A DNA stretch of 64,000 bases, taken from assembly GCA_965218585.1 (NCBI GenBank), contig CBDCLE010000008.1:1-64000 (forward strand), read 5' to 3'. The notes under the pieces were generated by a model. The model saw only the letters and a list, made by a program, of their open reading frames with translations, had not been told where the DNA came from and did not search any database. The translations under genes and the position numbers were made by a program. This DNA is from Terriglobia bacterium (GTDB lineage Bacteria > Acidobacteriota > Terriglobia > 20CM-2-55-15). This document shows, piece by piece, positions 36,020 through 42,655 of the stretch; position 1 is the first letter of the stretch, and each line of letters starts with the position of its first letter.

Positions 36020-36601
36020 ATGCTTCCTTGGCTCGTCGTTCTCAAGATTGCCGGTAGTTTCTTCATCGGAGCGATTCCCTTTGCCGTTATTGCGGTCTGG
36101 GGCACAGGCATAGACGTTACCCGGGCCGGCTCGGGAAATCCCGGCTTCAATAACGTTCTTCGTGTGTCCTCTCGCCCGAGAGCTGGGGTCGCACTGATCG
36201 GAGACTTATCCAAGGGAGCTGTGGCCGTCGCGATCCTGTCCGCTTCCACCGACCCGGTCTGGTTCAGATGGTCCCTCGGACTGGCCGCGGTAGCCGGGCA
36301 CTGCTGGACACCGTTTCTGAAGTTCAATGGCGGTAAGGGCGTCGCCACTATGGCGGGCGCGTTGCTGTACCTGGAACTCCAGATCACAGCCATCTGCCTG
36401 ATCCTTTATCCGACCCTCCGCCTGTTCGGGCGGCGAATGGGTTGGGCGCAGGAAGGTGCGGTCTCATCGATGACGACGATGTCAGTGATCGCGGGGACGA
36501 TCTTCGCCCTCCGCGGATTTGAAGCCGGCATCTTCGCCGTTGTCGCCCTGGCCATCGTCATCGTTCGCCACTCCGCCAACATCCGCCACCTTTTCTCTTG
36601 A
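36020..36601 (+). CDS. plsY: Glycerol-3-phosphate acyltransferase PlsY family
   Basis: GSGNPG..N..R, D..KG, GH..PF..F.GGKGVAT, RH..NI. Confidence 0.85.
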   Translation: MLPWLVVLKIAGSFFIGAIPFAVIAVWGTGIDVTRAGSGNPGFNNVLRVSSRPRAGVALIGDLSKGAVAVAILSASTDPVWFRWSLGLAAVAGHCWTPFLKFNGGKGVATMAGALLYLELQITAICLILYPTLRLFGRRMGWAQEGAVSSMTTMSVIAGTIFALRGFEAGIFAVVALAIVIVRHSANIRHLFS

Positions 36602-36614
36602 AGGCCTGAATTTG

Positions 36615-36693
36615 ACCCAGAGACGCAGAGATCGCAGAGGTCGCAAAATAGGAATAAGTATCTGCGTTCTCTGCGTCTTTGCGCCTCTGCGTT
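36615..36693. repeat. CGCAGAG/CTCTGCG imperfect palindromic repeat
   Basis: AGAGACGCAGAGATCGCAGAG..TCTGCGTTCTCTGCGTCTTTGCGCCTCTGCGTT between convergent genes. Confidence 0.8.
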
Positions 36694-40251: not shown

Positions 40252-41903
40252 GAACTGACGGTTTCCGCCGCAGCCCCGACGGTCTCTGGAGTACCGCTGA
40301 CATCGGTCATCAGAATGGGGGGGAAATGGACCAGGCTCACGCTCGGTCGACGACCGACGTGCGACTCGGCCATTTCGAGTGCTTCGTTCATGGACGACGC
40401 CGTTTCCCAGCCCAATATTGAAGGGACACGTTGGTTTGTTGCTCCTACGACGATTACCTTGCCCAGGTGTGCCCTTCCGTTTTCGCCCCAATACCACATA
40501 TAGAACGGGTGCACGCCGTGGTAGGCGTTTCCTTCGCGGTACATCCGGATGTACTCAGGATTGCGGGCGAACTCTTCTTCGTACTTCTCCTGCATGACAT
40601 ACGAATCGCGTGTTTCAGTCAGAATCCGGTTGAAGAATTCGATATAGGACGGATGAAAAACCGGATCGAATTCGTCATAGCAAGGATGGGTCACGATCAT
40701 CACGCCATTCTTCTTAACAATGGGCATGTTGCGGTAGAAATTAAAAAAGTATCCGGTGGCCATCACCTGGACGAGGAGAGGGTTCATGATCGAGTTCACG
40801 TTGTAAGGTGAAACGAAAGTGATCCCGGTTATGACGACATCCGACTGTCCTTCGACGGGCACCGCGTACTGATCGAAGCAGTATTTCAGAATCTTGTGGT
40901 GCGTGGCCTCGGTTTCTCCGGCGTGTACGCCGATCAGGTCGTAGGCTGCGGGAATACTGAAGAAGAGCTTCCGCTTCATCGACGTCGACATTTTCGACAA
41001 AGCGAATCGGGCGGTCTTGAATTTCATCCGGTCCAGTCCTGACCATCGATCTTCGTTCTCTCCCAGAAACGCCGACATCGGATCGAACATGCGATTGTTC
41101 ATCGCAGTTTCGATATGGAAGACTTTCAGGTGTTTGTCGATCACCCGCCCGATCCTGTCGCATGAATGCGACAGGCCGGAATGCTCCGGATCCATATACG
41201 AGTTCGATTTCAGAATGGCCTGGGGTGTGTGATGCGCCTGAAGTGTGGGGTAGTCGCAAAGCCCTACGCCGACAGACTTGTGACCTCCGTCCATGGGCAC
41301 CAGGTTGATGTTGACGTAAATCAGAAGGTCGGATTCAGCGGCCCGCCGGTTGATGCGCACCCGTTCGCCATTTTCGGTCTGCTCCAGTTCGACCATGCCA
41401 TCGGGAGCCTCGCCATCGTGGTTGTAGTACTGGTCCGGATAGTAAGCGTTGAATATCTTGCTCCCCACGGCCCGTTTCATTTCAGCAGGCGTCATTCGCC
41501 TATGGAAAGATGTTGCGATGATGATGTGAGTGTCTTCGACACCGGCCTCTGAAAGAATGGGCAAGACGATTTCGAGGACGGACTGCCGGACATCGGGAAG
41601 CCGCATCATTGGCAGAGGCAGAGAGATATCGTCGATCGCGATCGTTACCTTCATTCCCGGAGTGAGGATGTCCTTGAGCGGGTCCACATTTTCCGGATGG
41701 TCGAGAGCGTGACGAATCGCGGCCTGGGGGTTCCCGAGTCCCGGCATCGGCGGTTTGGCATAGATCACACGTGTTCCGGCCGGAAGTGAAACCTCGATCA
41801 AGTCTTCGCCTGAGAAGAGCGCTCTGGGAGCAGAATTTCCTTCCAGATAGACAACCGAATCCTGGGCTGCCGCTTCAGGGTCGTAGCCGTTGTTACCGCT
41901 CAT
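40248..41903 (-). CDS. Lactate racemase (LarA/DUF2088) domain protein (ElbC-like)
   Basis: I..AL..P....PL, TIAIDDISLP, HRRMT..E, NHD, IN.RAAESDL, DGGHKS. Confidence 0.75.
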   Translation of the reverse strand: MSGNNGYDPEAAAQDSVVYLEGNSAPRALFSGEDLIEVSLPAGTRVIYAKPPMPGLGNPQAAIRHALDHPENVDPLKDILTPGMKVTIAIDDISLPLPMMRLPDVRQSVLEIVLPILSEAGVEDTHIIIATSFHRRMTPAEMKRAVGSKIFNAYYPDQYYNHDGEAPDGMVELEQTENGERVRINRRAAESDLLIYVNINLVPMDGGHKSVGVGLCDYPTLQAHHTPQAILKSNSYMDPEHSGLSHSCDRIGRVIDKHLKVFHIETAMNNRMFDPMSAFLGENEDRWSGLDRMKFKTARFALSKMSTSMKRKLFFSIPAAYDLIGVHAGETEATHHKILKYCFDQYAVPVEGQSDVVITGITFVSPYNVNSIMNPLLVQVMATGYFFNFYRNMPIVKKNGVMIVTHPCYDEFDPVFHPSYIEFFNRILTETRDSYVMQEKYEEEFARNPEYIRMYREGNAYHGVHPFYMWYWGENGRAHLGKVIVVGATNQRVPSILGWETASSMNEALEMAESHVGRRPSVSLVHFPPILMTDVSGTPETVGAAAETVSS

Positions 41904-42655
41904 CTTGGTGTCTGGGCCGCACCGACGTCGGACCCGAGAAACGGTGGAAATTGGTTGGAATCGCCGTTCTGACCCAGACTATTCAGATTGAGAATCGGCC
42001 ATTGCCGGTTCCTGGCGAACCGGCGCAGTCTGTGCGTCGGGTTGGTGGCGACCGGATTTCCTGTTGCCGTCAACATGGGAATGTCCGAGGTGCTGTCTGA
42101 GAACGCACACGACTCATTCAAATCGATATTTTCCATTTCTGCGTAAGCCATGATAATCGTTGCCTTCGCGGTTTCTGCCACCAGTGGGGCGAGAACTTTT
42201 CCTGTCGCGATGTGATTCTTGAACTCAAGGCGGTTACAGATAACCTCGTCAAAACCGAAGTGCAGAGCGATGGGCCGCACCGTGAAGTCCAGAGCTCCGG
42301 TGACAAGAATGTTCCGGTATCCCTGTTCGCGGGTCTGGGCGATCAAAGCTTCAGACCCCGCATAGATCGACGGTTTCAGCGTCACCTCGAACAGGTCGTC
42401 AGCCAGCCCGATGAGCCGGTCTCGATGCATCCCCCGATACGCTCTGAAAAAGAATACGTTGAATAGCGCTCGCGAATAGAGGTCCAGTCCTAGAAATACA
42501 GGAACTCTCAGGAGGACTTTCGTGAATTGATAGATCGATTTGAATATAGACCGATCGTTGCGGGCGTAGTAAGCGTAAGTCGTGACCAGGTTGCACGATA
42601 GCAGTGTGCCGTCCAGATCAAAGAACGCGGCCTTTTTTTGTGTTTTGCCGTCCAA
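41900..42655 (-). CDS. HAD-superfamily subfamily IB hydrolase (ElbB-like)
   Basis: AAFFDLDGTL, LVTGA, K, AFSDSTSDIPML, NP..RLRR.A..RQWPI. Confidence 0.9.
   Translation of the reverse strand: MDGKTQKKAAFFDLDGTLLSCNLVTTYAYYARNDRSIFKSIYQFTKVLLRVPVFLGLDLYSRALFNVFFFRAYRGMHRDRLIGLADDLFEVTLKPSIYAGSEALIAQTREQGYRNILVTGALDFTVRPIALHFGFDEVICNRLEFKNHIATGKVLAPLVAETAKATIIMAYAEMENIDLNESCAFSDSTSDIPMLTATGNPVATNPTHRLRRFARNRQWPILNLNSLGQNGDSNQFPPFLGSDVGAAQTPR

Follow-up and report, generated by a model that had tools for sequence, protein, structure and literature searches.

The first 64,000 nucleotides of contig CBDCLE010000008.1 of the Terriglobia bacterium assembly GCA_965218585.1 (hereafter the window, to whose full length all coordinates refer) carry an elb-like gene cluster. 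Its best explanation, which we regard as somewhat probable, is an elb-type pathway for alkyl-glycerol ethers in which the functions of the multidomain protein ElbD are spread over separate genes. The cluster consists of five translationally coupled minus-strand genes (36703-42655), these being a HAD-IB hydrolase that is ElbB-like and likely a phosphatase (41900..42655), a LarA-like protein that is ElbC-like (40248..41903), a stand-alone fatty-acyl reductase (FAR; 38644..40251), an ElbE-like extended short-chain dehydrogenase/reductase (SDR; 37635..38630) and a YegS/BmrU-type soluble lipid kinase (36703..37635). Facing these is a plus-strand gene for PlsY, the acyl-phosphate:glycerol-3-phosphate acyltransferase (36020..36601). 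Judged by homology and gene order, this is a real, conserved and rearranged member of the elb cluster family, the set known from myxobacteria and subdivision-4 acidobacteria, and represents a lineage-specific variant of it.

The window is contig C8 of a genome assembly (G000) of 4.55 Mb in 26 contigs, which is 95.5% complete. Compared genomes and loci are given G- and L-numbers, while families and genera are labelled f and g, with f1 and g1 being those of the window. The closest relatives of the FAR in named records are metagenome-assembled genomes (MAGs) that bear the title 'uncultured Solibacteraceae bacterium' or 'Terriglobia bacterium' (69-82% identity), and by such matches the source is an acidobacterium of the class Terriglobia, probably belonging to the Solibacteraceae.

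Correspondence with canonical elb clusters

The elbA-elbE operon of Myxococcus xanthus (Lorenzen et al., 2014, as described in the available part of PMC9131029; most other sources are likewise cited for the parts available) possesses a HAD protein (ElbB), a protein of unassigned function in the elbC position, a FAR-type reductase and an epimerase-family SDR (ElbE), all in the same relative order as in the window. However, ElbD of M. xanthus (UniProt Q1DC43 according to PMC13023045) is a single FAR-ACS-ACP-AGPAT protein, whereas the window cluster holds the FAR alone, with the part comprising AMP-ligase, acyl carrier protein (ACP) and acyltransferase (A-ACP-AT) being unlinked. The window cluster also has no adjacent counterpart of elbA, but has the lipid kinase and PlsY attached to it.

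Clusters of the same architecture from Acidobacteriota and Myxococcota MAGs were used as stand-ins for M. xanthus ElbB-E. Fused ElbD-like proteins of 1482-1537 aa and the products of their neighbouring genes, taken from two acidobacterial genomes and two Myxococcota MAGs, were searched against the whole window genome. The N-terminal ~560 residues of the four fused proteins match the window FAR with 35-36% identity over its whole length, this being the only match of the N-terminal part in the genome among the five best listed, while the C-terminal ~850 residues match tri-domain proteins encoded on contigs C9, C19 and C11 (25-33%). The LarA-like genes which lie between HAD and fused ElbD in the canonical clusters are 60-62% identical to the window gene, which is their best match in the genome. 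For the HAD genes of these clusters the window HAD is the only match (47-48% identity), and for the SDR genes that follow the fused ElbD the window SDR is the best (37-40% identity). In addition, a LarA-like gene with 57-59% identity to that of the window is present in all five Myxococcota MAGs that have a fused ElbD.

On these comparisons, the window genes pair up, as reciprocal best matches, with the canonical HAD, LarA-like, fused ElbD and SDR genes of Acidobacteriota and Myxococcota MAGs. Together with the conserved order in canonical clusters, this bears out the proposal of a preliminary description of the window that it holds an elb-type cluster with a stand-alone reductase. ElbC of M. 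xanthus is itself presumably LarA-like.

Of 301 genomes of the phylum, 32 have a match to the LarA-like protein at E <= 1e-30 (a tally that includes G049, flagged unpublished), and 20 of the loci were mapped. Ten of these, from families f32 and f36, have a HAD gene, a LarA-like gene, a long gene for reductase, AMP-ligase, ACP and acyltransferase, and an SDR gene, which is the elbB-elbC-elbD-elbE order of M. xanthus as given in the available part of PMC9131029. One further locus has the canonical order of HAD, LarA-like and fused ElbD genes with the SDR match absent, two have only HAD and LarA-like genes, and five have a distant LarA-like gene (35-37% identity) and none of the other window genes. 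The exact window arrangement, including the convergent PlsY, was found once, in a genome of the window's class (G229, family f4). The remaining locus (L060 of G003, family f8) has the order FAR, A-ACP-AT, HAD, LarA-like and kinase. In L060 the LarA-like match lies within a 1472-aa frame containing one TGA, and read-through of neighbouring genes or a sequencing error is possible there.

The remaining domains of ElbD

The acyltransferase domain PF01553 occurs at exactly three places in the window genome, each time in a protein of 836-905 aa with AMP-binding, PP-binding and Acyltransferase domains as assigned by Pfam (C9:145376-148093, L014; C19:74239-76914, L015; C11:47092-49602, L016), and no stand-alone PlsC was found in this genome with that domain. 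None of the three genes is near the elb-like genes. Those on C9 and C19, whose products share 76% identity, have transposase and IstB genes in their vicinity. A tri-domain protein is present in 32 of the 34 other f1 genomes and is unlinked to the FAR wherever both share a contig; two of four sister species have an additional stand-alone PlsC-type protein of 251-270 aa.

From these domain assignments, the AMP-ligase/ACP/acyltransferase part of ElbD is not lost, being encoded in trans by the tri-domain proteins. A separate AMP-binding/ACP/PlsC protein, for which the preliminary description had advised searching the rest of the genome, is therefore present three times. The further suggestion that the kinase and PlsY replace the missing ElbD domains is not supported, both on account of these three proteins and in view of clusters in families f93, f97 and f5 which hold ligase, ACP, acyltransferase, kinase and PlsY together.

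Gene content and layout of the cluster

Genes were called from a listing of open reading frames (ORFs) and their translations, with families assigned by Pfam and NCBIfam. The ElbB-like HAD-IB hydrolase is of 251 aa (PF12710, 113 bits; TIGR01490, 123.7 against a cut-off of 98.3) and has its DxD motif, FFDLDGTL, close to the N-terminus. The ElbC-like protein is of 551 aa, with a Lar_N domain and a match to NF052592 'LarAH14/15/16' of 815.3 (cut-off 740). The SDR (331 aa) matches Epimerase PF01370 with 117.6 bits, and its best NCBIfam model is the hopanoid-associated HpnA (194.8, below the cut-off of that model). The kinase (310 aa) has DAGK_cat and YegS_C domains and a TIGR00147 score of 155.5 (cut-off 118.65). 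PlsY (193 aa) matches G3P_acyltransf PF02660 with 115 bits, over the cut-off, and lies below the TIGR00023 equivalog cut-off (110.3 vs 137.2).

The FAR is of 535 aa when read from an ATG whose codon overlaps the stop of the preceding LarA-like gene; the ORF as listed from the first start is of 617 aa and would overlap the LarA-like gene by 250 bp. It has an NAD_binding_4 domain (PF07993, 165 bits), with GATGFVG and YTYTK motifs visible in the translation, and a weak C-terminal Sterile domain (29 bits vs the 35.4 cut-off). It also matches the 'Fatty acyl-CoA reductase' of PDB 7eoz (E 4e-38), with this match covering residues 34-370 only. Its nearest look-alikes in a protein atlas include eukaryotic alcohol-forming fatty acyl-CoA reductases, confirming the FAR family. 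Of the 8000 candidates scored in a large protein search, 977 are relatives at E <= 1e-60, and the few of these that are named are SDR oxidoreductase, hypothetical protein or 'long-chain acyl-CoA synthetase', none of them from cultured species. The genome has a second NAD_binding_4 protein of 386 aa (C5:74848-76008, plus strand, L017), which is thioester-reductase-like (TIGR01746, 156 bits, below cut-off).

The HAD/LarA-like and LarA-like/FAR junctions are overlaps of 4 bp, FAR and SDR are separated by 13 bp, and SDR and kinase overlap by 1 bp; the 3′ ends of the kinase and PlsY genes converge across a spacer of 101 bp. A scan of 35700-43600 gave three promoter-like sequences (4.0 expected) and two terminator-like sequences (7.9 expected). 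All six genes were thus located and identified as the preliminary description had them, as five tightly coupled minus-strand genes with a convergent plsY, the third gene being of about 535 aa and having a reductase domain with no ligase, ACP or acyltransferase domains.

Distribution and layouts in the Terriglobia

The FAR was searched against 401 Terriglobia genomes at E <= 1e-40 and the LarA-like protein against the same 401 at E <= 1e-80, the FAR tally including seven genomes flagged unpublished (G382, G527, G623, G663, G567, G390 and G601), five of which are also in the LarA-like tally. FAR matches were present in 220 of the genomes. Full-length matches with 40-85% identity come from f1, f93, f96, f97, f98, f4, one f5 and two f94 genomes, whereas those of f2, f92 and f3 are partial only and lie within frames of ~800 aa or more. 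LarA-like matches were present in 58 genomes and, on reading the two tables together, every genome with this gene also has the FAR. By family, LarA-like presence is 35/72 in f93 (all 35 with a FAR match), 4/4 in f97, 6/6 in f98, 3/7 in f96, 2/14 in f94, 1/70 in f5 and 1/1 in f4. Both genes are present in all f97 and f98 genomes, in the single positive f5 genome (G355) and in two f94 genomes with strong matches (G305 and G391).

The window-type layout, with HAD, LarA-like, FAR, SDR and kinase genes ordered as in the window and a PlsY match within the mapped region, recurs in nine further genomes, belonging to f1, f4, f94 and to named MAGs carrying no family label; PlsY is beside the kinase or the HAD gene in eight of these and ~4.6 kb away in one. 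As this five-gene order is found nine more times, the window arrangement is more than chance, and the synteny of the HAD, LarA-like, FAR, SDR and kinase genes raised in the preliminary description does hold, kinase included. A tenth genome has the first four window genes only.

A second layout was found in nine of ten loci from f93, f97 and f5. It has eight genes, all on one strand, in the order FAR, a PP-binding and AMP-binding protein (754 aa), a PlsC-type acyltransferase, PlsY, HAD, LarA-like, SDR and kinase, with the domains confirmed by Pfam on one locus (L136). In f96 the layout is HAD, LarA-like, FAR, a stand-alone acyltransferase and SDR, and in one f98 genome the FAR and the HAD/LarA-like pair are unlinked.

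In a quick maximum-likelihood tree of 64 FAR sequences with SH-aLRT supports, 33 stand-alone Terriglobia FARs form one clade (100), 25 reductase domains of fused ElbD from other Acidobacteriota and Myxococcota form a separate group (98), and the window-type FARs form a sub-clade of 21 (99). As stand-alone and fused reductases fall in separate clades, the former are an old lineage rather than the outcome of a recent splitting of a fused gene.

HAD-FAR fusions of 843-858 aa occur in two Terriglobia genomes from other families (G308, G326; L162:7199-9775, minus strand; L163:6072-8603, plus strand). After the fusion come genes for a second NAD_binding_4 reductase, a pyruvyl-transferase-like protein, an AMP ligase and an enoyl-CoA hydratase. 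From the two loci looked at, many of the ~800-aa frames in f2, f92 and f3 may be such fusions too. The fusions support a functional tie between both activities, though in a different gene context.

The LarA-like protein as a probable nickel-pincer enzyme

The best solved relatives of the LarA-like protein are PDB 9q2u/9q3k (E 8e-31) and 9q3j (E 4e-28), which are LarA homologues with a single catalytic histidine. The HMMER alignment with these was read against the residue roles given in the available part of PMC12611868, and 44 ElbC-like sequences were then aligned with the canonical LarA of the window genome. The ribose aspartate (D92), the first catalytic histidine (H134) and the nickel histidine (H225) are kept in all 44 sequences, and the lysine that tethers the nickel-pincer nucleotide (NPN; K209) in 42; all four align with their counterparts in PDB 9q2u and in the canonical LarA. 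The position of the second catalytic histidine (His174 of L. plantarum LarA), which is needed for racemisation, is deleted relative to the canonical LarA. This agrees with groups 14 and 15 of Desguin, which have no second catalytic histidine as described in PMC12611868, and the protein is likely, from these conserved residues, an NPN enzyme with one catalytic histidine. Like LarA_Sp and LarA_Bw (9q2u, 9q3j; PMC12611868), it has a lysine for NPN, a histidine for nickel, an aspartate for the ribose and a single catalytic histidine. However, in these two an asparagine replaces the second catalytic histidine where the window protein has a deletion, and their phosphate-binding Lys76 aligns with Leu95 of the window protein. 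Their gene context is also carbohydrate-related according to the same source, whereas that of the window gene is lipid-related.

These relatives allow for a HAD/LarA-like pair that takes a small phosphorylated hydroxy or sugar acid as its substrate and has no relation to lipids. Those LarA homologues that have been characterised are racemases or epimerases of 2-hydroxy acids (PMC11770544) and the nearest solved structures are tentatively tied to carbohydrate metabolism (PMC12611868), while in none of the five Myxococcota MAGs with a fused ElbD is the LarA-like gene linked to elbD, three of them having it next to a HAD gene. Nevertheless, several Acidobacteriota families have the pair in linkage with FAR, ElbD and SDR genes, and the group-14 homologue from Frankia was inactive on all hydroxy acids assayed, according to the available part of PMC7583248, so that we hold such a substrate to be very improbable.

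The genes larB (C2:234491-235114), larC (C20:26063-27286) and larE (C19:19539-20318) are all present in the window genome with scores over their cut-offs, and are dispersed. The genome also has a canonical lactate racemase LarA (C24:78951-80243, minus strand; NF033504, 517.7 against a cut-off of 460).

PlsY and the lipid kinase

The PlsY of the cluster is the only PF02660 match in the window genome, and in five relatives from as many families (G511, G519, G355, G229 and G305 of f93, f97, f5, f4 and f94, respectively) the single PF02660 match is likewise at or beside the cluster. An extra, specialised PlsY paralogue was considered and is ruled out, with a single copy in all six genomes tested. 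As the sole copy, PlsY is probably a housekeeping enzyme and not an added specialist. The kinase, which is the last gene of both window-type and eight-gene-type clusters, gives the window genome its sole DAGK_cat match above the cut-off. The linkage of both genes to the cluster is conserved across the two types of loci. However, since clusters with a separate ligase-ACP protein and acyltransferase also hold them both, they are conserved partners and not substitutes.

A single PlsY and a single kinase are also what would be expected of a general neighbourhood for glycerophospholipid synthesis and recycling around the only plsY, in which the kinase would recycle diacylglycerol, the HAD protein would be a lipid-phosphate phosphatase and the elb-like genes would be co-located for co-regulation. 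The location of PlsX elsewhere (contig C1) and the confinement of PlsC-type domains to the tri-domain proteins fit with this too. Yet the overlapping stops and starts join HAD, LarA-like, FAR, SDR and kinase genes into one translational unit, and the position of the kinase after the SDR is shared by both cluster types and by several families, which is tighter than loose co-location; we consider this explanation decidedly unlikely.

Other ether routes and the published record

PlsA/PlsR and Ger, the ester-to-ether reductases of anaerobes, resemble the cluster in that they represent the ether-forming step proposed in Solibacter usitatus (PMC13159169, PMC10087280), but belong to an enzyme family unrelated to the window genes, and no HGD-D domain match indicative of this route was found in the window genome at its given completeness. 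The animal FAR1/GNPAT/AGPS route and the MXAN_1674-1676 operon share with the cluster a FAR that would supply the alkyl chain, with an NAD_binding_4 domain and a Sterile-type one which in the window protein scores below its cut-off (PMC9131029), but an AGPS-like protein was not recognised in the window genome by an indirect test, namely a search for FAD-oxidase_C followed by NCBIfam, with neither an AGPS model nor a reference. The three FAD-oxidase_C proteins found, one of them cut by a contig end, strongly match GlcD or YdiJ models.

S. usitatus makes iso-C15 mono- and diethers as well as glycerol dialkyl glycerol tetraethers of the branched type (brGDGTs), and is described as having no ElbD, with PlsAR homologues being proposed instead (Halamka et al., 2022, PMC10087280, in part). 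Similarly, a 2026 study reports no ElbD homologue in the Solibacteraceae under its BLAST filter (PMC13023045, in part), and the elb cluster has been assigned to subdivision 4 (Sahonero-Canavesi et al., 2022, PMC13159169).

A preprint on sponge symbionts (bioRxiv 10.64898/2026.06.23.733905) describes, in the part available, elb-like clusters in which elbD is split between its reductase and adenylation domains, with glycerol-3-phosphate acyltransferase and diacylglycerol kinase neighbours in two clades, and cites soil acidobacterial cases of split elbD to Sinninghe Damste 2018. A split elbD and such neighbours are therefore already known from that text. In those clusters, however, the A-ACP-AT half stays beside the reductase while it is missing from the window locus, and the hosts are Poribacteria and subdivision-6 Acidobacteriota, not Terriglobia. 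The window layout and a link between ElbC and nickel-pincer enzymes were not described in the available parts of the published literature on elb, Solibacter and LarA homologues, although Sinninghe Damste 2018 may bear on the point.

Proposed pathway and points against it

In the elb-type ether pathway that we favour, a fatty acid would be adenylated and loaded onto the ACP of a tri-domain protein, and this thioester would be reduced by the FAR, giving a fatty aldehyde or a fatty alcohol. Attachment of this chain to a glycerol-phosphate backbone, which PlsY would supply as lysophosphatidate, would then fall to the ElbB-like phosphatase together with the ElbC-like nickel-pincer enzyme and the ElbE-like SDR, and would yield a 1-O-alkyl-glycerol lipid, with the PlsC-type acyltransferase of ElbD supplied in trans by the tri-domain proteins. 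The YegS-type kinase would finally re-phosphorylate the alkyl(acyl)glycerol for entry into phospholipid synthesis.

A number of observations weigh against this pathway, the first being the uneven presence of its components in the window's own family. The FAR is found in 33 of the 34 other f1 genomes, whereas the LarA-like gene is found in 5/34, and in 0/4 of those belonging to g1. Reduced f1 loci take the form HAD-FAR-SDR-kinase with no LarA-like gene, FAR-kinase-PlsY, FAR-PlsY or GDSL-FAR alone. As f1 relatives keep the FAR while HAD, LarA-like and SDR genes are often missing, the FAR would have a role independent of ElbB, ElbC and ElbE, and their patchiness beside a near-universal FAR gives real weight to a role in fatty-alcohol synthesis only. 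The HAD-FAR-SDR-kinase form belongs to two sister species of the window's genus (L144 of G409 and L145 of G353). In L144 the HAD gene abuts the FAR with no gap and in L145 the gap is 3 bp, with the LarA-like gene being absent from both; each has a second HAD copy (73% identity) ~4 kb beyond a rhomboid gene, and in L145 the SDR is reduced to fragments.

The product of a FAR-centred fatty-alcohol or aldehyde pathway would be something other than a glycerol ether, such as free alcohols, wax esters or some other envelope lipid derived from an alcohol, and HAD, LarA-like and SDR genes would form an optional module. As well as the f1 distribution and its reduced loci, the eukaryotic alcohol-forming reductases and PDB 7eoz among the FAR look-alikes, and the different neighbourhood of the HAD-fused FAR relatives in two other Terriglobia genomes are in keeping with this. 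Outside f1, however, FAR and LarA-like genes nearly always accompany each other, mostly in linkage, and the homology to the reductase part of ElbD covers the entire FAR, ElbD being a protein genetically tied to the ether lipids of M. xanthus (PMC9131029). Such a pathway is in our opinion unlikely, though it deserves to be kept in mind.

Further points against the elb-type ether pathway come from the roles of the individual proteins. In favour of the pathway, the alkyl and vinyl ether lipids of M. xanthus depend on ElbD and possibly on ElbE, but the phenotype of an elbB insertion there is ascribed to polar effects (PMC9131029, in part), and roles for ElbB and ElbC are not established in any organism. 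ElbD homologues also occur in Pontiella isolates in which ether lipids went undetected (PMC11868695). The tri-domain proteins may be housekeeping acyltransferases for phosphatidate synthesis as well, and since they hold the only PlsC-type domains in the genome, an ether-specific purpose for them is weakened; the position of PlsY may likewise reflect general clustering of lipid genes. As regards the cofactor, the existence of larB, larC and larE solely for the ElbC-like protein is ruled out by the canonical LarA on C24, and these genes are consistent with an NPN-dependent ElbC-like protein while not being specific to it.

A more particular mechanism, which we put forward as improbable, is that the ElbB/ElbC pair and the stand-alone FAR build the sn-1 alkyl ether straight onto the lysophosphatidate that PlsY makes, in a nickel-pincer-dependent and AGPS-independent manner, and that this is the aerobic ether-bond machinery of Solibacteraceae-type acidobacteria. 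Here the single-histidine LarA homologue would take the sn-2 carbinol hydride to give a transient ketone resembling acyl-dihydroxyacetone phosphate; this ketone would allow exchange of the ester for the fatty alcohol made by the FAR, and the hydride would then be returned to the same face.

Neighbouring genes

Directly upstream of the cluster is a TesA-like GDSL esterase (42720..43406, minus strand; PF13472, 105.6 bits; NF007819, 129.7, below cut-off) and, divergent from it, an ABC transporter (43495-46834) for which YbbA and YbbP models are the top matches. These are probably an independent unit abutting the cluster, with an arrangement which we take to resemble the tesA-ybbA-ybbP neighbourhood of E. 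coli, and the GDSL esterase remains beside the FAR in relatives with no HAD or LarA-like gene. On the downstream side there is a rhomboid protease and a radical-SAM tRNA-modification gene.

Implications for ether lipids of soil acidobacteria

The brGDGTs are branched tetraethers which serve as palaeothermometers, and the Solibacteraceae include the one cultured producer of most of them. The source of the ether bond in the mono- and diethers of aerobic soil acidobacteria, and in brGDGTs, is still unsettled. The window genome, with nearest relatives labelled Solibacteraceae, has all the predicted domains of ElbD on unlinked genes along with homologues of ElbB, ElbC and ElbE, and a full-length ElbD BLAST under strict filters could overlook such a split layout. 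The predicted single-histidine nickel-pincer enzyme, with 57-62% identity between Acidobacteriota and Myxococcota, is a conserved candidate part of elb-type pathways. If the nickel-pincer mechanism were true, this cluster, and not a PlsA/Ger homologue, would make the aerobic ether bonds of Solibacteraceae-type acidobacteria. For a group in which the literature reports no ElbD, the cluster offers a candidate for aerobic ether-bond formation that can be put to the test.

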